Shown: one piece after another, positions 3,555 to 32,000 of the stretch
Layout: the number at the start of each line of letters is the position of its first letter
How positions within the stretch are numbered: position 1 is the stretch's first letter
Origin: an uncultured Gammaproteobacteria bacterium
GTDB lineage: Bacteria > Patescibacteriota > Patescibacteriia > UBA2591 > UBA6264
Direction of reading: 5' to 3'
Length of the DNA stretch: 32,000 nucleotides
Assembly (NCBI GenBank): GCA_964507075.1
Contig: CAZDOL010000006.1
Coordinates: forward strand, 1 to 32,000
Program-made: the position numbers and the translations under genes
Notes under the pieces: generated by a model
What the model was told of the DNA's origin: nothing
What the model saw: the letters and a program-made list of their open reading frames with translations, nothing else
The model's database searches: none

Positions 3555-3600
3555 AGTCCAGAAAAAAATACATGTCTTTAAGAGATAAAGCTTGATTTTA

Positions 3601-3716
3601 TTAATGTTGACCCCAGAGGAGTGCGTTCCGCCGACCAAGTGGGGACTTTTTAACGTCAACGTCAGACGTTTTCCCATCGCTTCGCTCCTCTTTAACGACT
3701 GACGTTTATATTTTTT
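3601..3716 (+). repeat. Mosaic intergenic hairpin repeat, copy 3 (two successive hairpin plus T-run modules), probably terminating the GHKL/STAS cassette
   Basis: TTAATGTTGACCCCAG lies at 3601-3616. GACCCCA (3609-3615) pairs with TGGGGAC (3640-3646) with one A-A mismatch, followed by T5. Hairpin AACGTCAGACGTT (3658-3670) / AACGACTGACGTT (3694-3706) is followed by a T-rich run to 3716. The inner GGAGYGCGTTCCGC module is homologous to 1193-1206. Confidence 0.7.
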
Positions 3717-3730
3717 GAATCTGAGTGATA

Positions 3731-4416: not shown

Positions 4417-6324
4417 ATGAAATCTGCATCTCTAAAAAATAAAATATTTCATAAAACAACTTTAAAGAAGACCATATTCTTTTTGCTTTGTGATACAATA
4501 TTAATAGCTTTATCTTGTTTCTTGGGATTTTTACTTCGTTTTGATGGGGCTATTGATCCTCAATATTTTTCAATGATTAAGGCCTTTGCTGTATTGGCTG
4601 TGCCTTTAACTATAGTATTTTTTACTGTAGAAAAATTATATTCTATCTCTTGGTCTTTTATCAGTATCAGAGAGATTATTAAATTAGGAAGAGCTATTAT
4701 ATTAAGTTTTGCTTCTTTGGGAGCAATTCTTTTTCTTCTTAAAGATCACGACATGTTTCAAGGATTCCCCCGCTCTATTGTCTTTATTTCCGCCTCTATC
4801 GCCCTTTTTACTACTGGCGCATTACGTTTTGCTAAAAGAATATATCTCTACGGCTTTAAGAATAAATCAAAAGGAAATGGCGAGAATAAAAATAAAATTT
4901 TAATCATTGGTGCTGGAGATGCTGGAGAAAAACTAGCTCGACATATCATTGCTACTCCTAATATACCATATTCCTTAAAGGGATTTATTGATGACAATCC
5001 CATGAAACAGGGTGTATTGATACATGGGATTAAGGTTTTAGGAAAAATCAAAGAGCTTCCTGAAATTATTTCTCGAGAAGGAATTAAAGAAATTATTATT
5101 GCTATACCATCTGCTCCACCCAAGGTTATAAAAGAAACCGTGGAGTTAGCCCGACAAGCAAAAATTGAAAAGATAAAGATTTTGCCCGGAACAAAAGAAA
5201 TTTTAGAGGAAAAGGTGAGCTTGAGTAATTTAAGAGAAATCTCAATTGAGGACTTGCTGGGTAGAGACCCGATTGAAATAGATACCTATGCCATTAAAGA
5301 ATACATTACAGATAAAATTGTTTTAGTCACTGGCGCTGCCGGATCTATTGGCTCTGTTTTATGTGAACAAATTTTAAAATTTAAACCAAGAAAGCTAATT
5401 GCATTGGACCAAAGAGAAACTGCTCTTTTTTACTTAAAAAGAGATTTAAATAAATTGTGGAAAAATTCATCTTTAGCAGAAAACCCACTAAATTTCGCTT
5501 TGGTTGATATCTGCGATAAAAACAAGATAGATAAAATATTTGAAAAATTCCACCCTAATGTTATTTTCCATGCGGCCGCATATAAGCATGTGCCAATGAT
5601 GGAAGACGACCCAGACGAAGCAGTAAAAAATAATATTTTTGGGACCTTAACAATCGGCCAAGCAGCTTTGAAATATAATACAGAAAAATTCGTCATGGTT
5701 TCCACTGACAAAGCCATAAATCCCACTTCTGTTATGGGAGCCAGCAAAAGAATGTGTGAAAAAGTATGTGTCTGGTTAAATAATAAATGGGGACAGGCAC
5801 CTTCGGAGCCAGTCCCCGGGACAGTCCCCTCTACAAAATTTTGTGCGGTAAGGTTTGGAAATGTTTTGGGAAGCCAAGGGAGTGTAGTTCCTATATTTGA
5901 AAAACAAATCAAAAAAGGAGGGCCTGTAGAAGTAACTGACCCAGAAATGAAGAGGTATTTTATGATTACTAGCGAGGCCTGTCTCTTGATAATGCAGGCA
6001 GGAGCTATTGGTCAAGGAGGAGAAGTTTTCGTGTTAGATATGGGTCAACCAGTAAAAATATTAGACTTAGCTAAAGAAATGATCCGTTTAGCAGGATACA
6101 AACCAGACGTTGATGTTCCAATTGTTTTTACGGGTATTAGACAAGGAGAAAAACTGTTTGAAGAAATCATAACTGCCAATGAATCCCCCACTAAACATGA
6201 AAAGATATTTATTTCCCATTTAGATAATAATGGAGATGATATGGAGAGAATCTTAAAAGAATTTGAACAAGCTTTATTGGAGATGAATCAAGAAAAAATA
6301 AAAGAATTATTGGATATAAAATAG
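4417..6324 (+). CDS. Membrane-anchored CapD/PglF/WbpM-type polysaccharide biosynthesis protein (nucleotide-sugar 4,6-dehydratase family)
   Basis: 635 aa. The N-terminus has hydrophobic segments. Two Rossmann motifs are present (ILIIGAGDAGEKLA and VLVTGAAGSIGS). Also present are YKHVPMME, VSTDKAINPTSVMGASKR and VRFGNVLGSQGSVVPIF. Confidence 0.9.
   Translation: MKSASLKNKIFHKTTLKKTIFFLLCDTILIALSCFLGFLLRFDGAIDPQYFSMIKAFAVLAVPLTIVFFTVEKLYSISWSFISIREIIKLGRAIILSFASLGAILFLLKDHDMFQGFPRSIVFISASIALFTTGALRFAKRIYLYGFKNKSKGNGENKNKILIIGAGDAGEKLARHIIATPNIPYSLKGFIDDNPMKQGVLIHGIKVLGKIKELPEIISREGIKEIIIAIPSAPPKVIKETVELARQAKIEKIKILPGTKEILEEKVSLSNLREISIEDLLGRDPIEIDTYAIKEYITDKIVLVTGAAGSIGSVLCEQILKFKPRKLIALDQRETALFYLKRDLNKLWKNSSLAENPLNFALVDICDKNKIDKIFEKFHPNVIFHAAAYKHVPMMEDDPDEAVKNNIFGTLTIGQAALKYNTEKFVMVSTDKAINPTSVMGASKRMCEKVCVWLNNKWGQAPSEPVPGTVPSTKFCAVRFGNVLGSQGSVVPIFEKQIKKGGPVEVTDPEMKRYFMITSEACLLIMQAGAIGQGGEVFVLDMGQPVKILDLAKEMIRLAGYKPDVDVPIVFTGIRQGEKLFEEIITANESPTKHEKIFISHLDNNGDDMERILKEFEQALLEMNQEKIKELLDIK
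5785..5831 (+). repeat. In-frame copy of a GC-rich intergenic hairpin repeat inside the CapD-type CDS
   Basis: 47 of 47 nt are identical to intergenic 31715-31761. It starts on a codon boundary and encodes KWGQAPSEPVPGTVP(S). Imperfect hairpin GGGGACAGGCACC-ttc-GGAGCCAGTCCCC, followed by GGGACAGTCCCC. Confidence 0.9.
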
Positions 6325-6479: not shown

Positions 6480-7124
6480 ATGAAAAAAGAAAGGAAACAA
6501 AAGACATTAAGCTGTTTTATGGTAGAAGAAGAACTGTTAGAAAGAGGTATTTTGATATTCTCTCCTTTAGAATTTAGACAAATTTTTAATGTATCACGTG
6601 ATAGTGCTACTTTTTTTATAAACTATAATCTGAAGAAAGGATTTTTTATTAAATTAAAAAATGGCTTTTATGCCCTTAAACATCACTTCCCTTCCGAATT
6701 TGAAATTGCTAATAGAATTTATTCGCCGTCTTATGTTTCGTTGGAATACGCAATGATGTATCATCATATTATCGCAGAAACAGTTTATTCTGTGACCTCG
6801 GTTACGACAAAAACAACTCGCAAATTTATTGTTAATAATGTATCTTATTCATATAATAAAATCAAAAAAATAGCTTTTACTGGTTATACAAAACAAACGC
6901 TAGACAAGAATATCGTCCTGATAGCTGAACCAGAAAAAGCTTTTATTGACTATCTTTATTTTGTTTCTCTCGGGAAAAAAGCTATCTATGATCGCATAGA
7001 TGTTAGTGGTTTAAAAAAGAAAAAGTTGCTTCATTATGCTAAATTGTTTGAAAAAATTTCGTTGATAAAATTATTAAACGATGTTTATGATAAAAGAAGA
7101 AGAGATAAAGAGATTATCTATTAG
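6480..7124 (+). CDS. abiEi: AbiEi-like antitoxin / transcriptional regulator
   Basis: 214-aa ORF directly upstream of an AbiEii-type gene and overlapping it by 44 nt. An N-terminal wHTH-like segment is present. The call rests on position and size more than on strong motifs. Confidence 0.65.
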   Translation: MKKERKQKTLSCFMVEEELLERGILIFSPLEFRQIFNVSRDSATFFINYNLKKGFFIKLKNGFYALKHHFPSEFEIANRIYSPSYVSLEYAMMYHHIIAETVYSVTSVTTKTTRKFIVNNVSYSYNKIKKIAFTGYTKQTLDKNIVLIAEPEKAFIDYLYFVSLGKKAIYDRIDVSGLKKKKLLHYAKLFEKISLIKLLNDVYDKRRRDKEIIY

Positions 7125-7815
7125 GGCCCAAACGAACCCTCAAATCATTGCCAGAGAATATGCACAACATAATTGCTTGTCCGAATTATATAGATTAAAA
7201 GGATCTGAAAATCTTTTATTTAAGGGAGGAACTGCTTTAAGAATCATATATCAAAGCCCGAGATTTTCCGAAGATTTAGATTTTACTGGCATAAATGGCA
7301 TCAGTTATCTTGAAATTGAAAATATTCTAACCAATACACTAAAAAATCTATCTGATTGGGGATTTAATATTGAGATTGATGAAGCCAAAAAAACAACTGG
7401 TGGATATTTAGCTAAAACAGTATTATCATTTTTAACATTTAAGATATTACTTAAAATGGAAATATCTTTCCGCCAAAATAGACAAAAGGTTGTAAAAGAA
7501 ATTTCAAGCATTGCGAATGAATATATTCCTAATTATGATATTATCCATCTTCCTCAAGAAGAAATAATAAATGGAAAAATAAGCGCTCTACTTGATAGGT
7601 CTAAGCCACGTGATTGGTATGACCTCTATTTCTTCCTTCGTCAGGGAATGCTCACCCCTAAACAAAAAAAGATATTGCCAAAAATTCTATCTGAACTTGA
7701 AAAGATAAAAATGGATTTTAAAAAAGAATTAAAAGAATTTCTCCCCTATAGCCATCAAATAATTATCAAAGATTTTAGGAATACTTTATCAAAAGAAATT
7801 AAAAAAAATTACTAA
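7081..7815 (+). CDS. abiEii: AbiEii/AbiGii-family (DUF1814) nucleotidyltransferase toxin
   Basis: LLFKGGTALRIIYQSPRFSEDLDFT is the family signature. A C-terminal KPRDWYDLYFF motif is also present. Confidence 0.85.
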   Translation: MFMIKEEEIKRLSIRAQTNPQIIAREYAQHNCLSELYRLKGSENLLFKGGTALRIIYQSPRFSEDLDFTGINGISYLEIENILTNTLKNLSDWGFNIEIDEAKKTTGGYLAKTVLSFLTFKILLKMEISFRQNRQKVVKEISSIANEYIPNYDIIHLPQEEIINGKISALLDRSKPRDWYDLYFFLRQGMLTPKQKKILPKILSELEKIKMDFKKELKEFLPYSHQIIIKDFRNTLSKEIKKNY

Positions 7816-8379: not shown

Positions 8380-9717
8380 ATGTTTTTAAATAGAAAAATA
8401 AATAAACATCTTCTATCCTGGAAAAATGCAAAAAATAGAAAACCACTAGTTATTAAGGGTGCTAGACAGGTTGGCAAGACTTCTATTGTTTTAAATTTTG
8501 CAAAAAAAGAATTCAATAATACTATTTATATTAATCTAGAAAAATCTGAACATTTGAAATATCTCCAAAATCCAATTTCGTTAGAAGAGTTCAAAAAAAT
8601 TATTAAAATTAATTTTCAACAAAATATAATTCCTGGCAAAACATTAATATTTCTTGATGAAATACAAAATTGCCCTTCTCTAATAAAACTTTTAAGATTC
8701 TTTAAAGAAGAATGGCCAAAAATTCATGTTATCGCCACAGGCTCTTTATTAGAGGTTATGCTTAAAAAACAAGGACTTTCGATATCCGTAGGTAGAGTAG
8801 AATATATTTATTTATATCCTTTGGATTTTTTTGAATACTTAGATGCTAAAAAAGAAAAAGAGCTTTTAAAATTCCTAAAAAATATTCAATTAGGGGAAAA
8901 AATTCCTTTAGCAATCCATCAAAGAACCATGAATATATTTCATGAATATACTATGATTGGAGGAATGCCTGAAATTGTAAAATTATTTTTAGAAGGAGTT
9001 ACAGCTGAAAAGTTAGAATCTATATATTCTTCACTTCTCGCAGGATACAAAGAAGATGTATACAAATATTCATCTGTTGCGAATGCTAAATATCTCAAAT
9101 ATGCTATTGAAAATGCACCATATTTTGCTGGGAATATTATTTCATATAAAAAATTTGGACAATTAGACATTAAAAGTAGAGAAATAAAAACAGCTTTTGA
9201 GCTCTTAAAAGATGCAATGATGCTTTCCCCTATTCCAGCGACACAATCGGTAGAGATACCATTGATTCCTAAAGAAAAAAAATCTAAAAAAATAATTTTT
9301 TTAGATGTGGGTTTAGTTAACCATCAAATGGGGATATTAAAAGAATATTTAAATATTAAGAATCTTAACTCTTTCTATAAAGGAAGGATAGCAGAACAAA
9401 TAGTTGGGCAAAATATTTTATCTCAATTTACACACTCTCCAGCCAAACTTTTTTACTGGGGGAAAGACAAGGAAAAGAGTAAAGCAGAGGTTGACTTTTG
9501 CCTAAATAAGAATGGGACGTTAATGGGAATAGAAGTAAAATCTGGGAAAACAGGAAGATTGAGGTCTCTGCATCAATTCGCTCAAGAAGTAAAAAATAAA
9601 CAAATTGTAAGAATATATAGTGGAGAATTTAAAAAAGAAAAAATTAAAATTAAAAATATAGAAAACGAACTAATTTCTATCCCCTTCTATCTAATTCCTC
9701 GTATTAAGGAATTATAA
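8380..9717 (+). CDS. AAA-family ATPase with a DUF4143-type C-terminal domain
   Basis: Walker A is GARQVGKTS and Walker B is LIFLDEIQ. A C-terminal restriction-endonuclease-like EVDFCL...GIEVKSGK motif is present. Confidence 0.85.
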   Translation: MFLNRKINKHLLSWKNAKNRKPLVIKGARQVGKTSIVLNFAKKEFNNTIYINLEKSEHLKYLQNPISLEEFKKIIKINFQQNIIPGKTLIFLDEIQNCPSLIKLLRFFKEEWPKIHVIATGSLLEVMLKKQGLSISVGRVEYIYLYPLDFFEYLDAKKEKELLKFLKNIQLGEKIPLAIHQRTMNIFHEYTMIGGMPEIVKLFLEGVTAEKLESIYSSLLAGYKEDVYKYSSVANAKYLKYAIENAPYFAGNIISYKKFGQLDIKSREIKTAFELLKDAMMLSPIPATQSVEIPLIPKEKKSKKIIFLDVGLVNHQMGILKEYLNIKNLNSFYKGRIAEQIVGQNILSQFTHSPAKLFYWGKDKEKSKAEVDFCLNKNGTLMGIEVKSGKTGRLRSLHQFAQEVKNKQIVRIYSGEFKKEKIKIKNIENELISIPFYLIPRIKEL

Positions 9718-11210: not shown

Positions 11211-12248
11211 ATGGATAATAACGAAAATAAAAACTATGACAATATTCATTTAAACCAAAACCGACCTCAATATTCAGGTCTTCCTAAAGAAGAAAAACCA
11301 AAAAACGAAGAAAAAAAACATCAAGAACATCATACAGACGAGGATGAAATTGATTTAAGGGACTATATCAATGTGCTTTTAAAAAGAAAATGGCAAATCG
11401 CCATAATCTTTGGAATTGCTGTAGTTATAGCTGGCATAATCAGTTTCTCAATGCCACTAACATTTGAAGCTAGTAATTTAGTGAAGGTTGGAAGCATTAA
11501 AAAAATACAATTACAGAACATAGATGATATTAAATCAGTTTTTAGAAGAGAAACTGTTTTGCAACAAATAAGAACAAAATTACAAGAACCGTTAGGACTA
11601 ACTGAAACAACAACTGGAACCATCTCCGAAATGTTTAGTATTAAAGAGGGAGAGAATGACGGTGATCAATCTGTTTTTATTGAAATTGACGGTAGAGCTC
11701 AAACTCCAGAAGAAGCTGTGGAGGTTGTTAATGCAGTTACAGACATATTATTAACCTATCATGGGAATATTTTTGCTGGAGCAGAAAAAACTTTTGATGT
11801 TGAAATGGAAACAATCACTAAGAGTAAAGAAAAATGTCAAAAAGATATTGTGAAAATCACCACTGATATTGCCAGAGTGAATTCTGATATATTAAAATAC
11901 GAAACAGAAATAAATCAAAGATCTAGCGCTTCTACTGAAGGACAGGGAAGAATAGCTGAAAGCTACATCAATCTTTTAGCTGAAACCAAAGATCAGAAAG
12001 AAAATAAGGAAGCTCAACTATTAAATTTAGAACAAAGATTAGTTATGTTAGATCAAGAGATACAAGTAAAAGAAAATGAAAGAATATATGAAACTAGATC
12101 TACTGAAGTTGAGGTTCCAGCGATTCCACCTGAAACCAGGATTGCCCCTAATAGAAAGCAAAATGTAATAATTGCTGGTATTCTGGGAATATTCATTGGC
12201 GTTCTTTACGCCTTTGCAGCTGAATATTTCAGTAAAGAAAAAGCATAA
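11211..12248 (+). CDS. Wzz/polysaccharide co-polymerase (chain-length determinant)-like protein
   Basis: The N-terminus has IDLRDYINVLLKRKWQI followed by TM1. A long coiled periplasmic-type region follows. A proline-rich PAIPPETRIAPNRK motif precedes the C-terminal TM. Confidence 0.7.
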   Translation: MDNNENKNYDNIHLNQNRPQYSGLPKEEKPKNEEKKHQEHHTDEDEIDLRDYINVLLKRKWQIAIIFGIAVVIAGIISFSMPLTFEASNLVKVGSIKKIQLQNIDDIKSVFRRETVLQQIRTKLQEPLGLTETTTGTISEMFSIKEGENDGDQSVFIEIDGRAQTPEEAVEVVNAVTDILLTYHGNIFAGAEKTFDVEMETITKSKEKCQKDIVKITTDIARVNSDILKYETEINQRSSASTEGQGRIAESYINLLAETKDQKENKEAQLLNLEQRLVMLDQEIQVKENERIYETRSTEVEVPAIPPETRIAPNRKQNVIIAGILGIFIGVLYAFAAEYFSKEKA

Positions 12249-12268
12249 AACATAATGACTAACAAAAA

Positions 12269-12303
12269 GGGACAGTCCCCGTTCGGGGACAGTCCCTTTT
12301 TTT
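12269..12303. terminator. Bidirectional intrinsic terminator between the convergent wzz-like gene and recA
   Basis: AAAAA-GGGACAGTCCCC-gttc-GGGGACAGTCCC-TTTTTTT. The 12-bp stem has one central A-A mismatch. An A-run lies 5' and a T-run 3', so it reads as a terminator on both strands. An extra GGGGACAGTCCCC lies at 12310-12322. Confidence 0.8.
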
Positions 12304-12324
12304 ATTAATGGGGACAGTCCCCTA

Positions 12325-13341
12325 TTATTGTTCTTTAATGGCTTGTAATATTTTTCCCTTCAATTCTTTGGCTAATTTGGGGTCATCTCTTAATGCTTTT
12401 TTTGAATTTTCCCAACCCACTCCTAATTTAATCTTTTCATAACTCAAAGTATTACCTAACTTTTTAACTAAACCATATTTAGCTCCTAAATTAAGCAAAT
12501 CCCCTTCCCAAGAAATGCCCTGGTCATACATAATTTCAAACTCACAGGTCTTAAACGGAGGGGCAACTTTATTCTTGGCAATTTTAGCTTTAACCTTATT
12601 CCCAATTACTTCATCACCCTTTTTAATTTGAGCTAAACGTTTAAGTTCAATTCTAACTGAAGAATAAAATTTTAAAGCCAAGCCACCAGTTGTTGTTTCT
12701 GGGTTTCCAAAAAATACACCTATCTTCATTCTGATTTGATTTATAAAAATAACTGATGTATGAGTCTTGCTCACAATGCTGGTTAATTTCCTTAAGGCCT
12801 GACTCATCAAGCGTGCTTGTAAACCCATATGTGAGTCGCCCATTTCTCCTTCAATCTCTTTTCTGGGGGTTAAAGCGGCTACTGAATCAATAACAATAAC
12901 ATCAACTCCATTAGAACGCACCAAAGTTTCTACTATTTCTAGGGCCTGTTCGCCCGTATCTGGTTGAGAAATTAATAAATCATTAATATTCACGCCAATT
13001 TTTTTAGCATATTCTGGGTCTAAAGCATGCTCGGCGTCAACAAAAGCAGCTACTCCACCTTTTTTTTGTGATTGAGCTATGATATGAAGAGCTAAGGTGC
13101 TTTTGCCACTCATTTCCTTGCCGAATATTTCAATAACCCTTCCTTTGGGCACGCCCCCTATTCCTAAAGCTACATCCAAAGAAAGACATCCTGTAGAAAT
13201 ACACTCAACTTCCATTTTCTTGGCTTCTTTTAATCTCATTATAGAACCCTCTCCGAATCTTTCTTTAATTTGATTGATAGCCACTTCTGTCGCCTTTTGA
13301 CGGTCAGTAAGTGGTTTTTCTTTTTTTGTTTTTGAAACCAT
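12325..13341 (-). CDS. recA: Recombinase RecA
   Basis: 338 aa with the P-loop GKEMSGKST and [11 protein letters not shown]. Full-length family resemblance. Confidence 0.97.
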
Positions 13342-13353
13342 ATTTTTAATGTA

Positions 13354-14001
13354 TTATTCTTGTAAAATTATTTGACGAAAAATTATTTTCTCTTGAGAGT
13401 GTTTTTTCTTAGCTGAAACTTTAATGGTGTTCAAGCCAGGCAATAATTTTATTTCCTGTTCAAAATTTCCATCATTAATTTGTTCAATTGGTTGATCATT
13501 TATAAAAACATCCGCTCCCAAATCAGCACGACCAGCAATTATTAGATACGACTCAGTGGTCACTAAATCCTGAGAAGGACTTAAAACCTCTAAATCAGAC
13601 GTGAAAAGAACTCTTTTAATGCTAAATCCAACATATAAAAAAATCAATAATGTAACGATTCCAATAAAATAAGTTTTAATATTAAAAATGCCCTGAGATC
13701 GATTTTTAATTCCTAATATGCTTGGAATTTCCGTATTTGAACTTTGACTAAACTCTTTTCGCCACTTCTCAATTATCTTAGAAGGATTTAATTTTAAAAA
13801 TTCAGCATATCGTTCTAAAAAACCCTTAGTATAAGTAGACCCTGGCAATTTATAAAAATCATCTGCCTCTAGATATTCTAAATATTTCTTGGCAATGCCA
13901 GTCTTTTTTTCGGCATCTTTCAGGGTCCATTTATGACTTTGACGCGCTTCTTTCAAAATACCACCAATAGTGCTTTGAGGAATTGACTTGGATAAAAACA
14001 T
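13354..14001 (-). CDS. RodZ-like HTH membrane protein
   Basis: N-terminal Xre-type HTH (WTLKDAEKKTGIAKKYLEYLE), a single TM segment, and a C-terminal beta-rich domain. Confidence 0.65.
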   Translation of the reverse strand: MFLSKSIPQSTIGGILKEARQSHKWTLKDAEKKTGIAKKYLEYLEADDFYKLPGSTYTKGFLERYAEFLKLNPSKIIEKWRKEFSQSSNTEIPSILGIKNRSQGIFNIKTYFIGIVTLLIFLYVGFSIKRVLFTSDLEVLSPSQDLVTTESYLIIAGRADLGADVFINDQPIEQINDGNFEQEIKLLPGLNTIKVSAKKKHSQEKIIFRQIILQE

Positions 14002-14004
14002 AAA

Positions 14005-14048
14005 ACATTAGAACATTAGAACATTAGAACATTAGAACATTAGAACAT
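14005..14048. repeat. Octanucleotide microsatellite (ACATTAGA) x5.5 filling the ftsK to rodZ-like gap
   Basis: Five perfect tandem units lie at 14005-14044, plus a partial unit. The repeat spans essentially the whole 47-nt gap between the ftsK stop codon (14049-14051) and the next start codon (13999-14001). Confidence 0.95.
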
Positions 14049-26564: not shown

Positions 26565-26643
26565 AAATTTTAGAAAAACATACCATTTAATGGCACGAGA
26601 AGGGTCCTTAGAGCAATGTTGCAAAAGACCAACCCGACGGGTT
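26565..26643. repeat. Stop-codon-abutting repeat, copy X (downstream of alaS, upstream of scpA)
   Basis: About 79 nt are similar to 30105-30182. The last 36 nt (26608-26643) are identical to 30147-30182. It ends 4 nt from the alaS stop codon. Hairpins on the - strand are AACCC-gtc-GGGTT and GGTCTT...AAGACC. Confidence 0.85.
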
Positions 26644-26647
26644 TGTA

Positions 26648-28468
26648 TTAATTAAGGATGGCTTTTATTCGGCGGATGCCGGCGCTACTGGATTTTTCTT
26701 TAATGATTTTGAATTGTCCTAATTCCTTAGTGTTTTTGACATGAGGTCCGGCACAAATTTCCATACTAAAAGGAAATTCTGAGCTTGTAGAAGAACTATC
26801 ACCGATTGTGTAGACTTTGACTATTTCTGGATATTTTTCTCTGAAAAAAGCTAAAGCCCCCCCTTCAATTGCTTGCTTATATGGCATTTCTTTCATTGTG
26901 ACAAGAAGCGCTTCTTGTATTTTCTTGTTTACAATTTCTTCTATTTTAATTTTTTCTTCTTCTGTTAATTTCTGAGAATAAGTAAAATCAAATCTAAGGC
27001 GTTCGGGGTTGATGTCTGAGCCAGCCTGATGGACACTATCTCCTAAAACTTCTCTTAATGCCTGATGTAAAAGATGAGTGGCAGTATGTAGCTTGGTAAC
27101 CTTTATTTTAGATTCTTCGCTTTCAACACTATCAATGCCAACTCCCCCAAATTTATTCTGCACTCCCGCTTTAGAAATCTCTTGATGTTTTTTAGATTCT
27201 CTTTCAACAGCATTTTCATCTATTTTCAAATTTTCTTTTCTAGCTATTTCTCCCGTTACCCCAGGATGAAGACCATAAGTATCGTATAAATGAAAAACTG
27301 TCTTAGGGTCAAGAAAATTTTGTTTCTTGGAATGTGCTTCTTTAACTATATCTTTAAGTCTTTTCAATCCTATGGAAGTAGTTTGATTAAATTTATTTTC
27401 TTCGTTTTCTATTGTCCTTAAAATGTCATCTTTATTTTCAACTAATTCTGGATAAAAATTAGAATATAAATCAATGGCTGTTTGGGCTATTGGGAGTAAA
27501 AATTCTTCTTGGTCGTTAATCAACTTTGAGCAACGCATTGCTCTTCTAATAAGACGCCTTAAGATATATCCCCTGTCTTCTTTGCTGGGCAGAATGCCAT
27601 CTGAAATTAAAAAACAAGCTGCCCGAACATGGTCAGCAATAATTCTTTGATATTTTTTGTTAATTTCATCGACATTAGCAATTTCTTCAATCTTATGCAT
27701 TAAAGGTAAAAATAAATCTGTTTCATAGTCAGAGGGCTTGTTTTGTAAAACGCAAGCTAATCTTTCCAAACCCGCGCCAGTGTCAATATTTTTAACTGTT
27801 AATTTTTCATAACTTCCATCTGCTGTTTTATTATATTCCATAAAAACCAAGTTCCAAATTTCTACAAATCTTCCACAACTACAATTTGGTCCACAATTAG
27901 GCTGGTCGCATTCTTTAATTTTAAAATTTAATCCTCTGTCATAATATATTTCCGAACAAGGGCCACAAGGACCGTTGCTACCAATTGGCCCCCAAAAATT
28001 ATCTTTTATTCCAAAATAACTTATTCGTTCTTTGGGAATCCCGTTTTCTAACCAAATTTTTTCAGCTTCTTTGTCTACCTCTATTCCTTTAGTTCCATCA
28101 AAAAGAGTAACCCAAATATGGGCAATATCTAAATAATAATAATTGGTTAATAGGTCCATTGCCATTTGAATTGCTTCTTTTTTAAAATAACCATCAAAAG
28201 ACCAATTACCTAACATCTGAAAAAAGGTATGGTGAAATTCGTCTCCGACTTCCTCAATGTCTGAGGTGCGAAAACATTTTTGAATAGAACAAATTTCACT
28301 ATCAATTGGATTAATTTTTCCACTCAAAAAAGGAATAAATTGTTGCATGCCAGCAGAAGTAAAAAGCACGCTCTGATCAGCGGGAATCAAAGAAGACGAG
28401 GGCATAATTTTATGCCCCTTTTTTTGGAAATAATCTAAAAAAATTTCTCTAATTTCACTAACTTTCAT
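26648..28468 (-). CDS. alaS: Alanine--tRNA ligase, short form (catalytic plus editing domains, no C-Ala domain)
   Basis: FTSAGMQQF, the WNLVFMEYN region, and editing-domain motifs HTATHLLHQAL and CAGPHV. It is 606 aa, against roughly 870 aa for classical bacterial AlaRS. Confidence 0.93.
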   Translation of the reverse strand: MKVSEIREIFLDYFQKKGHKIMPSSSLIPADQSVLFTSAGMQQFIPFLSGKINPIDSEICSIQKCFRTSDIEEVGDEFHHTFFQMLGNWSFDGYFKKEAIQMAMDLLTNYYYLDIAHIWVTLFDGTKGIEVDKEAEKIWLENGIPKERISYFGIKDNFWGPIGSNGPCGPCSEIYYDRGLNFKIKECDQPNCGPNCSCGRFVEIWNLVFMEYNKTADGSYEKLTVKNIDTGAGLERLACVLQNKPSDYETDLFLPLMHKIEEIANVDEINKKYQRIIADHVRAACFLISDGILPSKEDRGYILRRLIRRAMRCSKLINDQEEFLLPIAQTAIDLYSNFYPELVENKDDILRTIENEENKFNQTTSIGLKRLKDIVKEAHSKKQNFLDPKTVFHLYDTYGLHPGVTGEIARKENLKIDENAVERESKKHQEISKAGVQNKFGGVGIDSVESEESKIKVTKLHTATHLLHQALREVLGDSVHQAGSDINPERLRFDFTYSQKLTEEEKIKIEEIVNKKIQEALLVTMKEMPYKQAIEGGALAFFREKYPEIVKVYTIGDSSSTSSEFPFSMEICAGPHVKNTKELGQFKIIKEKSSSAGIRRIKAILN

Positions 28469-28472
28469 TCTT

Positions 28473-29942
28473 TTATTTGTTATTCTTCTCTTTTTCCGTG
28501 CGATTTTTCTTTAAACATGTTTTACAATAAACAGGCCGAACGCCGTCTGGAACAAAAGGAACTTGAACTGTAACTCCACAACCCGAACACTTGGCTTCAT
28601 ATTTTACTATTTTCTCAGCTGGCAAAAATTCGCCAGGCTTTATTACGCCGCTCCAACGAGCTATTTTTTCTTCTACTAATTTTCGCGGTTCTGCATATCG
28701 TTCTCTAGAAACTTTAATTATCTTTTGTGCATTACCCTCTGGTTTAGATAAAGGAGGTAAGGTTAAAGCGGAAAATGGTTCTGAGGTGAGCCCATCTATC
28801 ATTAATTTAACATATATATTATATTGATCTAAATCTACTAAATCCTCTTCTTCAAAACGTGGTACAAATTCTTTTGCCAAAAAATCAGCATCTTTAGCTC
28901 CCACCCTAAAAACAACCATAGTTCCTACGTTGCCAAATATAGCATCTCTAACCCGAGAAGTGTCCTTAACTGTTAACTGGTCAATATATTGATGAGCTAA
29001 AATTAAATTTAAATGATATTTTCGAGCTTCAGACAAAATGTCAGCAAAGGATTCAGTGGCAAAATTTTGAAATTCATCAACATAAAGATAAAAATCTTGT
29101 CTTTCCTCTTCTGGAATATTAATTCTACTCATAACGGCCATCTGAATTTTGGTAATCATCATTGCTCCCAACAAAGCTGAAGCATCCTCTCCGATTCTCC
29201 CCTTAGAAAGATTCATAATTAGAATCTTTTTGTTATCCATTATCTCTCGCAAATTTATTTTTGACTTTACTTGACCTACAATGTCTCTAATTAAAGAAGT
29301 AGATAAAAATTGCCCCACCTTATTCTGAATTGGAGCAATTGCCTCAGCGCGCAAACGGTCTGGATATTTGGGATATTCATTGGTCCAAAAAGATTTCACT
29401 ACTGGGTCTGTTAAGCGATCAACAACCTTTTTTCTAAATTCCTTATCAACCAATATTCTCATAATTCCCAAAAGCGTGCTTCCGGGATATTCCAATAAGG
29501 CTAAAATTGTATTTCTTAATACATACTCTAAGCGAGGACCCCAAGAATCAGCCCAAATTTTCTTAAAAACACCGACCAAACCAGAGGCCACCAAGTGACG
29601 TTGGCTGGCATCCACCTGCTCTAAAACATTAAGAGCAAAGGGGTTTTCTGTATCTGCTGGATTAAAATATATAACATCATTGATTCTATTTGCCGGAATA
29701 AAATCTAAAGCCCTTTCAGCCAAATCACCATGAGGATCTACAATAGCAACTCCATGACCCATCTGAATATCTTGATAAATCATATTTTCTAATGTCGTTG
29801 ATTTGCCAGTCCCAGTTTTACCAATTAAATACATATGGCGCCGACGATCTTGGCGCTTAATTCCAAATTTTTTACGAATATTTCGATAATTTGTTTCTGC
29901 AAAGAGGACTATTTCATTATCGTTTTGCGAAAAATCAGCCAT
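28473..29942 (-). CDS. T4SS coupling-protein-like (TraD/VirD4/TrwB-type) P-loop ATPase with a C-terminal CxxC-x17-CxxC zinc ribbon
   Basis: Walker A LIGKTGTGKST and Walker B FYLYVDEFQNF. The C-terminus CSGC-GVTVQVPFVPDGVRPVY-CKTC has exactly 17 residues between the cysteine pairs. I prefer the start at ATG 29942 (MADFSQ), which has a TATAAT 7 nt upstream, over the ORF-track start at 29978. Confidence 0.7.
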   Translation of the reverse strand: MADFSQNDNEIVLFAETNYRNIRKKFGIKRQDRRRHMYLIGKTGTGKSTTLENMIYQDIQMGHGVAIVDPHGDLAERALDFIPANRINDVIYFNPADTENPFALNVLEQVDASQRHLVASGLVGVFKKIWADSWGPRLEYVLRNTILALLEYPGSTLLGIMRILVDKEFRKKVVDRLTDPVVKSFWTNEYPKYPDRLRAEAIAPIQNKVGQFLSTSLIRDIVGQVKSKINLREIMDNKKILIMNLSKGRIGEDASALLGAMMITKIQMAVMSRINIPEEERQDFYLYVDEFQNFATESFADILSEARKYHLNLILAHQYIDQLTVKDTSRVRDAIFGNVGTMVVFRVGAKDADFLAKEFVPRFEEEDLVDLDQYNIYVKLMIDGLTSEPFSALTLPPLSKPEGNAQKIIKVSRERYAEPRKLVEEKIARWSGVIKPGEFLPAEKIVKYEAKCSGCGVTVQVPFVPDGVRPVYCKTCLKKNRTEKEKNNK

Positions 29943-30104
29943 AGTCTTTATTATATTAAGATTAGAGAAAAAAAACAAGATGGAACTTGGGGATTAAAAA
30001 TATATACTAATGATGATTTTTGATAATTAATTAATAAAACATGTCTGATATCAGCAGAAATGCGATATAAGACGTTATGAAGAAATGAAAATGCATGTCC
30101 CCAC

Positions 30105-30182
30105 AATTTTGAAAAAACATACCCTTTAATGACACAAGAAGTGGTCTTAGAGCAATGTTGCAAAAGACCAACCCGACGGGTT
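30105..30182. repeat. Stop-codon-abutting repeat, copy Y (downstream of the wecA-like gene, upstream of the T4CP-like ATPase)
   Basis: Homologous to 26565-26643. It overlaps the wecA-like stop codon (30181-30183) by 2 nt. A short additional shared block, ATGCGATATAA, lies at 30060-30070 and 26521-26531. Confidence 0.85.
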
Positions 30183-31257
30183 AGTATTTTTTCTTTTTGG
30201 GGAGGAAATATATTAGGAAGCTGCCGAGAATCACTAATGCTAACAGGGCTATAGCTTTGCCTTGAGTTTGTAAAAAAAGAGCAATAAAACCAAAAATCAA
30301 AGCAATGGACCAATAAAAAATAACTGCCATGCGATGTGAAAGACCAGATTCAAGTAAACGAAAATGAAGATGCTTTTTGTCTGCACTAAAAACAGAATGA
30401 CGTTTTTCAAAGAATCTCTGGAAGACAACACTAATTAAATCTAAAACAGCTAAACCTAAAATTAAAAAGGTTGTAGCAAATTTACTACCCGAGATTATAG
30501 CCAAAACACCCAAAAAAAACCCTGCCAAGAGGCTACCACCTTCTCCTAAAAAAATTTTAGCTGGATGAAAATTAAAAATTAAAAATCCCAAAAAAGCGCC
30601 TGCCAAAATTAAAGCCATAGTTGCTATATCTGGCTGATAAAATTGCGTGAATAAACAAAGAGCAGTAATGCTTAAAGCACCAATAACTGTAACACCTGAA
30701 ACCAAACCATCTAAACCATCAAGTAATTTAGTAGAATACATTAATAATAATAACCAAAAAAAAGTTAAAACATCGGATAAAGGAGTAAAATAATAAGGAA
30801 CTCCATTTAATCTAAGTATTTCAATCTTGATTGTATCAAAATATAAATAACCAGAACCAAAAGGATTATTCATAAATGTAATGCCTATTCCACTAATAAT
30901 TATAGCTAAACATGCTAAGACAGGCCAAATAAATTGTTGAACAGGAGATAAATGATATTTGTCATCTAAAAAACCGCCGAGCATTAAAAATGAGGCGGCA
31001 ATTATTATACCGATTAAGTGCTTATTCAATGGAACCAATCCTGGCAACAAAGAAAAATGTTTAGCAATTAATAAAACAATAAAGAATGAAAGAAAAATAG
31101 CAACTCCGCCCATAAGTGGAATTGCCTTAGTATGAATTTTTCTTTTGTTGGTTTCTGGCCTATCTAATATATTAAATTTAATTGCGAGCCATCGTATAAA
31201 TGGTGTTAAAATCAACGACAGAATAAAACTAACAAGAAAAAAAATTAAGAATAACAT
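30181..31257 (-). CDS. Glycosyltransferase family 4 polyprenyl-phosphate sugar-phosphate transferase (WecA/MraY family, WecA-like)
   Basis: About 10 TM segments. Motifs are HTKAIPLMGGVAIF, FLDDKYHLSP and LLDGLDGLVSG. It lacks the MraY-type GTPTMGG motif. Confidence 0.8.
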   Translation of the reverse strand: MLFLIFFLVSFILSLILTPFIRWLAIKFNILDRPETNKRKIHTKAIPLMGGVAIFLSFFIVLLIAKHFSLLPGLVPLNKHLIGIIIAASFLMLGGFLDDKYHLSPVQQFIWPVLACLAIIISGIGITFMNNPFGSGYLYFDTIKIEILRLNGVPYYFTPLSDVLTFFWLLLLMYSTKLLDGLDGLVSGVTVIGALSITALCLFTQFYQPDIATMALILAGAFLGFLIFNFHPAKIFLGEGGSLLAGFFLGVLAIISGSKFATTFLILGLAVLDLISVVFQRFFEKRHSVFSADKKHLHFRLLESGLSHRMAVIFYWSIALIFGFIALFLQTQGKAIALLALVILGSFLIYFLPKKKKY

Positions 31258-31266
31258 AATAATGCT

Positions 31267-31298
31267 CTAATGTTCAAATGTTCTCATGTTCAAATGTC
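31267..31298. repeat. Degenerate octamer repeats (CWMATGTY x4), reverse-complement orientation of the 14005-14048 unit
   Basis: CTAATGTT CAAATGTT CTCATGTT CAAATGTC. CTAATGTT is the reverse complement of AACATTAG. The repeats span the ruvX stop codon and the last 8 codons of ruvX. Confidence 0.7.
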
Positions 31299-31672
31299 TG
31301 ATGGTCAATATAATCTTGCAAAATAATGCTTGCTGCAATAGCGTGATTTTCTTTATTTGATGAGAAATTGTTGGCCATCTTACTCGTAAATCTTTCGTCA
31401 AAAATAACAATTGGTAAATCAAATTCTTTTTTGCATTGTTTAATAAATTTCTCTGTTCTCTTTGTTTGTTCGCTACTATTGCCAGATAGACTAATTGGAT
31501 GTCCAATTATTACCTTTGTTATTTTTTGTTTTAAAATAATTTCTTGCAAATCTTTGAATAATAAAGAAATATTCTCTCCTTGTATTGTTTTATATGGTGT
31601 AGCTATCCTTGTTTGCAAAGGAGCAATGGCTAATCCAATATATTTGGCGCCATGGTCAATGGATAATAACAT
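31274..31672 (-). CDS. ruvX: RuvX/YqgF-family putative Holliday junction resolvase / pre-16S rRNA nuclease
   Basis: 132 aa. The N-terminal LSIDHGAKYIGLAIA motif is typical of YqgF. Confidence 0.85.
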   Translation of the reverse strand: MLLSIDHGAKYIGLAIAPLQTRIATPYKTIQGENISLLFKDLQEIILKQKITKVIIGHPISLSGNSSEQTKRTEKFIKQCKKEFDLPIVIFDERFTSKMANNFSSNKENHAIAASIILQDYIDHQTFEHENI

Positions 31673-31682
31673 AAGTTAAAAT

Positions 31683-31703
31683 AATTTCTAATTTCTAATT
31701 CCT
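31683..31703. repeat. Heptamer repeat (AATTYCT) x3 just upstream of the ruvX start codon
   Basis: AATTTCT AATTTCT AATTCCT. It shares an 18-mer with 16230-16247. Confidence 0.85.
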
Positions 31704-31714
31704 AAAGATGTCCA

Positions 31715-31786
31715 AAATGGGGACAGGCACCTTCGGAGCCAGTCCCCGGGACAGTCCCCTCCAGCTCCTCTTTAACGACTGACGTT
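31715..31786. repeat. Composite intergenic repeat. The 47-nt GGGGAC hairpin element is joined to the right half of the ACGTCAG hairpin module. It probably terminates map.
   Basis: 31715-31761 is identical to 5785-5831. 31764-31786 (GCTCCTCTTTAACGACTGACGTT) is identical to 3684-3706. The repeat overlaps the map stop codon by 2 nt. Confidence 0.9.
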
Positions 31787-32000
31787 ACATTTTTGTTAAA
31801 ACTTCGGCGCCAGATTTGGTAACTAAAATTGTATGCTCAAAGTGAGCAGATAGACTGCCATCATTAGTAACAATTGTCCAGCCATCCTTGAGTGTTTTGA
31901 CTTTCCAATCTCCAACATTAATCATTGGTTCAAAGCATAGAGTCATTCCTTTCTCTAAAATTATTCCAGTATGGGGACGACCATAATTCAGAATTACAGG
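31785..32000 (-). CDS. map: Methionine aminopeptidase type I, C-terminal 71 codons (5' end outside the window)
   Basis: My own translation of the - strand: PVILNYGRPHTGIILEKGMTLCFEPMINVGDWKVKTLKDGWTIVTNDGSLSAHFEHTILVTKSGAEVLTKM*. The FEPM, DGWT and SAHFEHT motifs are present. It is absent from the ORF track because no start codon lies in the window. Confidence 0.85.
   Translation of the reverse strand, partial: PVILNYGRPHTGIILEKGMTLCFEPMINVGDWKVKTLKDGWTIVTNDGSLSAHFEHTILVTKSGAEVLTKM

Follow-up and report, generated by a model that had tools for sequence, protein, structure and literature searches.

A GC-rich palindromic repeat, probably of the REP type, lies in frame in a loop of a PglF/CapD-type dehydratase gene from a Patescibacteria genome

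The window analysed here is the first 32,000 nucleotides (nt) of contig CAZDOL010000006.1 (assembly GCA_964507075.1), from an uncultured bacterium placed among the Patescibacteriota by the Genome Taxonomy Database (GTDB). It carries a 47-nt sequence, AAATGGGGACAGGCACCTTCGGAGCCAGTCCCCGGGACAGTCCCCTC, twice on the + strand: within the coding sequence of a dehydratase gene of the PglF/CapD/WbpM type (5785-5831) and in the spacer between map and ruvX (31715-31761). We find that this sequence belongs to a family of nested hairpins present in several genes and several phyla. In our judgement it is quite probably a repetitive extragenic palindromic (REP) element, carried as a tolerated passenger in a permissive loop of the enzyme, and either inserted recently or kept uniform by gene conversion.

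The two copies had been noticed in a first-pass annotation made from the sequence alone, which likened them to the Rickettsia palindromic elements (RPEs). We confirm both: the copies agree at 47/47 positions, and none of 100 dinucleotide shuffles produced such a match. Because the GC content of the window is only about 33%, the GC-rich 47-mer is conspicuous in composition.

Results

The coding copy lengthens a short loop of the dehydratase

The host gene (4417-6324, + strand) encodes a membrane-anchored UDP-sugar 4,6-dehydratase of 635 amino acids (aa), identified by its Pfam matches (Polysacc_synt_2 at 5.6e-111, plus CoA_binding_3) and by a match to PDB 5BJU (C. jejuni PglF/WlaL, 9.6e-84). 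The names of its homologues likewise point to Patescibacteria as the host. Codon 457 begins at 5785 and the next 45 nt translate to KWGQAPSEPVPGTVP, such that the coding copy covers K457-P471 plus 2 nt of S472; the repeat thus starts on a codon boundary and leaves the frame intact, as had been stated. The peptide is flanked by ...GASKRMCEKVCVWLN and FCAVRFGNVLGS, and the predicted full-length product reads WGQAPSEPVPGTVP across it. Its position between the ...GASKRMCEK... helix and the VRFGNVLGS motif was also confirmed; more specifically, the loop sits between the helix that follows the catalytic STDK motif and the VRFGNV strand.

Loop length could be measured where the WLN...FCAVRFGNV anchors matched, that is in 60 of the 120 best homologues. 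In 44 of these 60 the loop has 6 aa (KQNxTK), and most of the remaining homologues have a comparably short, xQKNxTK-like loop, judged by eye. The orthologues closest to the host protein, at 83-91% identity, lack the insert peptide and keep the 6-aa loop (P0002, P0003 and P0005-P0009; homologues of the host protein carry P numbers here, and collected loci L numbers). The earlier idea of a lineage-specific insertion of 15 residues therefore holds for the insertion itself, and its size needs correction: relative to the ancestral loop of 6 residues, the protein has gained a net 13 aa and not 15. These alignments mark the coding copy as an in-frame insertion in the loop that is specific to its lineage.

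Structural comparison is in keeping with the loop position that had been expected. Against the PglF crystal sequence of 5BJU, a gap of 14 residues falls precisely at the repeat. In an AlphaFold model of the host protein (21 sequences; mean predicted local distance difference test score, pLDDT, 66.7), the insert is a coil (459-471) with pLDDT below 50, between a helix (439-459) and a strand (474-480).

The element is built from nested copies of one near-palindromic unit

The building block is the near-palindromic unit GGGGACAGTCCCC (GGGGAC-A-GTCCCC). In the coding copy, a 29-nt core, GGGGACAGGCACC-TTC-GGAGCCAGTCCCC (5789-5817, + strand), is predicted to fold into a hairpin of 11 pairs with two A.A mismatches and a UUC loop; it is followed by a trailing 13-nt near-palindrome, CGGGACAGTCCCC (5817-5829, + strand), translated G-T-V-P. 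The 71-nt segment around this copy has a folding energy of -23.7 kcal/mol (z = -2.7 against shuffles). The full element reads GGGGACAGTCC-AAAAT, then the core, then GGGACAGTCCCC, in other words unit, AAAAT, 29-nt core and unit as nested hairpins, and is predicted to fold into a single long nested hairpin at -37.5 kcal/mol. Compared to a simple hairpin (unit-TTC-unit), the core differs at 4 positions, of which two form a compensatory pair and two make an A.A mismatch. Nesting goes further in locus L006, where one copy has a third hairpin inside the core loop.

The unit translates as GDSP in one frame and GTVP in another, and no stop codon occurs in any of the six frames of the repeat family. 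It is strongly over-represented in the window, with 14 near-matches observed against 0.07 expected and five exact 11-mers at 3 sites in 32 kb. Searches with other resources gave little: the 57-nt element returned chance-level partial matches only against plasmid and phage collections (BLAST), the exact core was absent from viral contigs, Rfam gave nothing meaningful on the whole window at the gathering threshold or on 31600-31900 with E up to 10, no tRNA or tmRNA was found, and a protein search with a 112-aa concatenate of the peptides from the element's six frames yielded 25 candidates, none of which scored.

The same loop holds different forms of the element in different lineages

The 90% identity cluster of the host protein has 8 members, from NCBI, JGI and ENA assemblies. 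Five of the eight records have the form of the window (NKWGQAPSEPVPGTVPSTK, 635 aa), and the other three have a form longer by five residues (ESGDSPKWGQ..., 640 aa). The element is thus polymorphic within the population. Locus L001, which has the long allele, aligns with the window over 15,175 nt at 99.6% identity, and the gapped positions of that alignment, 15 in all, equal in number the 15-nt allele difference in the element. The long allele of L001 matches the intergenic copy of the window across 52 nt (31710-31761).

Beyond this cluster, the host proteins of L001 and L002 are about 70% identical, and 46 nt of the element are identical between the two loci, in spite of third-codon positions that are only 52% identical over 300 flanking nt. 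This result shows that the element is far younger than the divergence of the genes, or has been kept uniform. Other forms occupy the same CapD site elsewhere: decayed copies in L003 (a simple hairpin) and L007, a pristine simple hairpin in L179, two tandem hairpins in L178 and the composite element in L001, L002 and L180. In L181, from another lineage, a different hairpin, CCCCGTTA...TAACGGGG, stands at the same place. The CapD orthologue of L180 (P0022; about 1790-1860) is frameshifted some 60 nt downstream of its copy, for which a sequencing error or a pseudogene is possible.

In a neighbour-joining tree of the host orthologues built without the loop, insert-bearing sequences are scattered. 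The window protein and P0001 stand beside insert-free P0003, P0013 is nested among KQNSTK sequences, and further carriers are P0010, P0032, the P0033/P0038/P0040 group and P0107.

Further copies lie in other genes and in spacers of Patescibacteria DNA

The first-pass annotation had proposed counting further copies, and the family was indeed found at more coding and non-coding sites. In about 169 kb of related, non-redundant Patescibacteria DNA, units with no more than one mismatch form 16 clusters, 9 coding and 7 intergenic. A DegT/DnrJ/EryC1 aminotransferase gene has one in-frame insert in L003 and L011, both of the simple form, and three in L006, where the form is composite; the window's own DegT gene (15-1118) has none. 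In-frame copies also occur in the C-terminal tail of RecA (L004), in a 486-aa open reading frame (ORF; L024), and, in L178, in a glycosyltransferase family 2 (GT2) gene and a second CapD loop. In every coding copy examined from Patescibacteria, the sense strand has the A-version and encodes a Gly/Pro/Ser/Thr-rich peptide.

The intergenic 47-mer of the window (31715-31761) lies in a 112-nt spacer, with the map stop at about 31785 and the ruvX start at 31672, both on the - strand; map, at the 31785 end, is a methionine aminopeptidase fragment. The copy lies 24 nt past the map stop. A member of another repeat family, D3 (GCTCCTCTTTAACGACTGACGT..., 31764-31799, + strand), adjoins it and overlaps the map stop codon, and the same juxtaposition of intergenic copy and D3 repeat recurs in a different context in L017. 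Neither 47-mer copy passes a terminator scan, and no U-run follows the coding hairpin.

The third site of the family in the window, 12268-12322, lies between the convergent wzz-like and recA genes. Here two units (12268-12297, no strand assigned) form an A-run/hairpin/T-run with the look of a bidirectional terminator, and the scan scores either strand here as terminator-like, having found 6 sites where 0.5 would be expected; the 12256-12330 segment folds at -35.9 kcal/mol. A solitary unit GGGGACAGTCCCC follows at 12310-12322 (no strand assigned), and the orthologous site in L007/L008 holds a 29-nt core with one mismatch. The same spacer (12249-12324) in L003, L004, L006, L007, L009 and L011 keeps the A-run/T-run frame with unrelated stems, which suggests that the family hairpin replaced an ordinary terminator stem at 12268-12297. 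Terminator stems in this spacer appear to turn over between lineages.

Family copies in general have A-rich 5' flanks and often T-rich 3' flanks, and the flanks they have in common are often ...ATG/CAT.... Among GTDB matches, 50 of 156 lie within 60 nt of a gene's 3' end by a crude ORF test. This test over-calls positions inside ORFs in GC-rich loci, because stop-to-stop ORFs are long there, and the in-frame cases given in this text are translation-checked ones only.

The family extends to other phyla

The element is present in this genome as had been reported, and it is specific neither to this genome nor to its phylum. Metagenome contigs with the exact 29-mer number 33 and represent about 23 distinct contexts, most of them of 44-68% GC. 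Two Pirellulales contigs have the exact core in frame at the same site of pheT in opposite orientations (L014 1538-1566 and L015 1951-1979), at the same codon position and with identical GCAAAA/TTTTGC flanks, which indicates a flip of the asymmetric positions in situ. Among 120 pheT orthologues examined, 116 have no insertion at that site. Two further in-frame hosts of the exact core are an EgtB-like gene and an outer-membrane-like ORF.

With a pattern of two units 3-9 nt apart, species-representative genomes gave at least 120 matches in more than 15 phyla, cultured isolates included; many GTDB genomes among the matches listed hold several loci of unit pairs, and the IleS gene of a Sphingorhabdus has one in-frame pair. 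As controls, three other patterns, one of them not a palindrome, gave 1, 4 and 0 loci in viral contigs compared to 7 for the target. Such hairpins therefore form a general class in which the target is only modestly enriched. The idea that the unit is unique across bacteria was dropped, since control patterns of similar build match viral contigs as well.

Family hairpins bracket transposase genes in some taxa

Locus L166 (AT-rich, 33% GC) holds 15 exact units in 4 kb, or 21 with one mismatch allowed. One of its ORFs matches Pfam Y1_Tnp at 3e-13, and the best NCBIfam match of this ORF is the REP-associated tyrosine transposase (RAYT) model NF047646. A search with the L166 protein and its relatives against all 1.43 Mb of collected loci gave five further RAYT-like genes: three in Planctomycetota (L097, L131 and L061, the last a fragment), one in Actinomycetota (L065) and one in Aminicenantes (L135). 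The RAYT-like genes of L166, L097 and L131 all carry Y1_Tnp, have NF047646 as their best match at 63-80 bits, and have family hairpins on both sides within 250 nt, which is the REPtron layout. The L135 gene is bracketed by a sister hairpin with the same GGGGAC...GTCCCC base. Two RAYT relatives on viral contigs, L184 and L185, have no flanking family hairpin, and the association is therefore limited to a subset of RAYTs.

Positions 1-4000 of L166 correspond to IMG/VR contig UViG_3300008418_000052, which also encodes a RelB/YafQ toxin-antitoxin pair and an SLH-domain protein. This locus, labelled viral, may be cellular DNA instead.

Other repeats and features of the window

At least two GC-rich repeat families beyond the 47-mer have hairpins of their own in spacers around NTP_transf_2/HEPN and MerR-like genes. 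One is the 46-nt family TTAATGTTGACCCCAG...GTAATTAATGTTGACGTCAG (1147-1192 and 2324-2369, 98% identical; also 3600-3660) and another the 59-nt family AACGTCAGACGTT...GCTCCTCTTTAACGACTGACGT (2354-2412 and 3650-3708, 86% identical); shorter matches lie at 2388-2423, 3684-3719 and 31764-31799. An 84-nt repeat containing AAACCCGTCGGGTT occurs at 26566-26649 and 30105-30188 (89% identical), each copy just past the 3' end of a - strand gene, alaS in one case and an MraY-like glycosyltransferase family 4 gene in the other. Short tandem arrays are present as well: about six copies of the 8-nt repeat TAGAACAT at 13993-14048, directly upstream of the start of an HTH_25 (RodZ-like) gene, and a related array, inverted and imperfect, at 31240-31303, at the ruvX 3' end and the start of the MraY-like gene (families D1, I1 and I2).

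Cumulative GC skew peaks at about 12200-12400, where gene orientation turns from + to -; this could be a replication terminus or merely the junction of convergent operons. The polysaccharide cluster is interspersed with genes of toxin-antitoxin or defence type, namely NTP_transf_2/HEPN, AbiEii and AAA_14/DUF4143 (1304-2318, 6480-7815 and 8380-9717), and farther along (28473-29978) is a coupling ATPase of the TrwB/TraG-like type that has a zinc finger at its C terminus.

Discussion

Relation to REP elements and to Rickettsia palindromic elements

The family shares much of its behaviour with REP elements and their doublets (REP doublets forming hairpins, REPINs) that are associated with RAYT genes. 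Like them it is an imperfect GC-rich palindrome of 20-40 nt that occurs as singletons, dimers and clusters, lies mostly downstream of genes and between convergent genes, has in-frame copies within ORFs, brackets a Y1/HUH transposase gene in some taxa, and is shared by distant phyla. It departs from them in that the unit itself is palindromic, so that arms pair in several registers and nesting reaches up to three levels, and in its host, a reduced Patescibacteria genome in which no RAYT has been seen so far. The REP catalogue defines superfamilies by a conserved unpaired GTAG or CGTC tetranucleotide at one end (PMC3733652). A search of the catalogue's searchable text and supplements did not turn up the family sequence.

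RPEs are palindromic repeats that occur between genes and also, in frame, inside a wide range of unrelated protein genes, where their positions suit the fold (PMC10969869). The likeness seen by the first-pass annotation stands for this behaviour, since our family is palindromic and in frame in CapD (two loops), DegT, RecA, GT2, the 486-aa ORF, PheT, IleS and an EgtB-like gene. In our reading the family belongs with the RAYT-associated REP elements, and we do not class it as an RPE. The comparison concerns a different phylum and rests on behaviour; RPE-1 is about 100-150 bp long with a conserved peptide, in contrast to the family element of 29-57 nt, whose frame varies by gene. The catalogue equates RPE-4 and RPE-6 of Rickettsia with CGTC-type REPs (PMC3733652). 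The hairpins with A/T-rich flanks (12268-12297, and the GCAAAA-core-TTTTGC arrangement in pheT) also resemble SPRITE-type terminator-like repeats and pairs of uptake signals, from which the family differs in that its 47-mer copies have no T-run and coding insertions are frequent.

As for novelty, a literature search found no paper linking REPs or miniature inverted-repeat transposable elements with Patescibacteria, and searching full texts for the unit brought up nothing but eukaryotic primers and the like. That part of the earlier claim survives. Outside Rickettsia, intragenic REPs are already catalogued as in-frame insertions in ORFs that add 7-50 residues, several per gene in some genomes (PMC3733652), and about 70 ORFs of Opitutus terrae are there described as 'decorated' by REPs (Di Nocera et al. 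2013, PMC3733652). Because intragenic REPs and RPEs had both been described, the novelty is less than was assumed.

How the coding copy may have arisen

We hypothesize that the loop of 6 residues in PglF/CapD received one REP copy, by insertion or by copying. As the family has no stop in any of the six frames and its sense peptides are Gly/Pro/Ser/Thr-rich, insertions in multiples of three would survive in permissive loops, with no function at the site. The copy would be young or homogenised, being identical to the intergenic copy and polymorphic by 15 nt at its 5' end in the population; older copies at the same site would have decayed in other lineages, and intergenic units would serve as terminator-like hairpins. 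From the situation in other taxa, we infer that the family spreads through RAYT, an HUH/Y1 single-strand DNA transposase, acting in trans. The insert is presumably neutral for the dehydratase.

Several observations weigh against this account. Neither the window nor about 170 kb of Patescibacteria loci yielded a RAYT gene, and the mobilisation step is thus taken from other taxa. The GTAG or CGTC tag that marks the catalogued REP superfamilies (PMC3733652) is missing from the flanks of more than 150 copies. The same 6-residue loop has been struck in at least 5-6 lineages, more than random insertion followed by selection readily explains, and a target motif for these insertions was not established. 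Neither a target-site duplication nor a defined element end was identified: comparison of filled and empty sites gave no clear duplication, codon changes blur the junctions, and the element is one palindrome, whereas miniature inverted-repeat transposable elements have terminal inverted repeats plus such a duplication and derive from insertion sequences. The structure model is moderate only (mean pLDDT 66.7). Finally, the window (31560-31900) and L027 share about 160 nt of the map-ruvX spacer at 100% identity, in spite of flanking genes that differ by about 10-14%. Such a pattern points to recombination in the recent past or to an unusual constraint, and recombination or conversion fits it as well as transposition does.

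Alternative explanations

That spacer brings in the strongest competitor, in which copies are spread and homogenised without transposition, by gene conversion, by template switching at hairpins or by homologous recombination of imported DNA; the coding copy would then have been templated from an intergenic copy through microhomology in the A-rich codons of the loop, where the empty site has CAAAAT and the element CCAAAATGG. For the origin and uniformity of the copies we regard gene conversion or template switching as a serious alternative, and spread entirely without transposition as a real if lesser possibility. The strains that share the identical spacer are 86% identical elsewhere; simple hairpins, composites and single units swap at orthologous sites (DegT in L003/L006, CapD in L003/L001, 12310 against L007); the pheT hairpin is flipped in situ between L014 and L015; loops grow by nesting; and the sampled Patescibacteria DNA has yielded no RAYT. 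Conversion needs an existing homologous tract, however, and leaves unaccounted for the first arrival in a loop that sister lineages have as KQNxTK, the flanks beside the insert in L002 are not donor-like, and family hairpins bracket RAYT genes elsewhere. A recruited peptide or mRNA hairpin, acting as a flexible surface loop that changes how the dehydratase oligomerises or binds partners, or as an internal RNA structure that modulates expression, seems unlikely to us. Its reading frame is kept, the insert is maintained as two alleles across samples, and the coding copies examined in Patescibacteria share one sense-strand version and a G/P/S/T-rich composition, but purifying selection against the Cys/Leu/Trp-coding strand could give this bias. 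The nearest orthologues manage without the insert, copies at the same site decay in other lineages, other genes read other frames into unrelated peptides (GTGTFGASP, GDRHLRSQSP and RGLAPKVPVP), and the hairpin has no U-run past it and is negative in the terminator scan.

Very unlikely, in our view, is a DNA-uptake signal like the uptake sequence (DUS) of Neisseria or the uptake signal sequence (USS) of Haemophilus, whose inverted pairs would act as terminators and whose copies in coding loops would be tolerated. The reliance of Patescibacteria on DNA uptake is why such a unit would accumulate in them, and the excess of near-matches in the window fits this; the unit pairs make terminator-like hairpins, as DUS pairs do. 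The density (3 sites in the 32 kb of the window, 16 clusters in the 169 kb of related DNA) is nevertheless far from the one per kb or so of DUS, the coding copies are insertions of whole hairpins of 30-110 nt and not substitutions, and uptake signals are lineage-specific, unlike a sequence found in more than 15 phyla and beside RAYT genes. Short exact repeats can mislead assemblers, and the earlier annotation had named an assembly chimera, such as a join through the repeat, as what would undo its claim. We see next to no chance of such an error of assembly or binning: to either side of the insert the gene runs collinear with its orthologues, the frame is unbroken, related inserts occupy the same codons in many independent metagenomes, and two length alleles, both in frame, recur in eight independent assemblies from NCBI, JGI and ENA on contigs of 9-61 kb, which argues directly against it.

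What the finding means

The passenger interpretation does not account for three observations: the identity of the 29-mer across phyla, the repeated use of one loop, and the lack so far of a RAYT in the lineage. In a tentative and rather doubtful extension, a single REP/RAYT lineage spreads between phyla and the REPs of Patescibacteria persist and move without a resident RAYT, colonise the same loops again and again, nest and remodel surface loops. The 29-nt hairpin is base-for-base the same in Patescibacteria (33% GC) and Planctomycetota (about 60% GC), and this would imply recent transfer across phyla. If true, the transfer took place perhaps between episymbionts and their hosts, or through DNA uptake, and growth by nesting would be a steady source of in-frame insertions and deletions for ultra-small genomes. 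Whatever its cause, an identical 29-mer in two phyla, together with copies that bracket RAYT genes, offers a tractable case for the movement of REP-RAYT systems between distant hosts.

There are practical consequences as well. Peptides of the GDSP, GTVP or GQSP type in these proteins come from the repeat and should be masked when sequences are aligned or phylogenies built, and the repeats can break or mislead assemblies; conversely, they mark permissive loops of enzymes and can serve as markers at the strain level. The genomes of Patescibacteria, small and dense in genes, are usually called streamlined. That one REP family sits in coding sequence about as often as in spacers there shows that selfish DNA still shapes Patescibacteria proteins.

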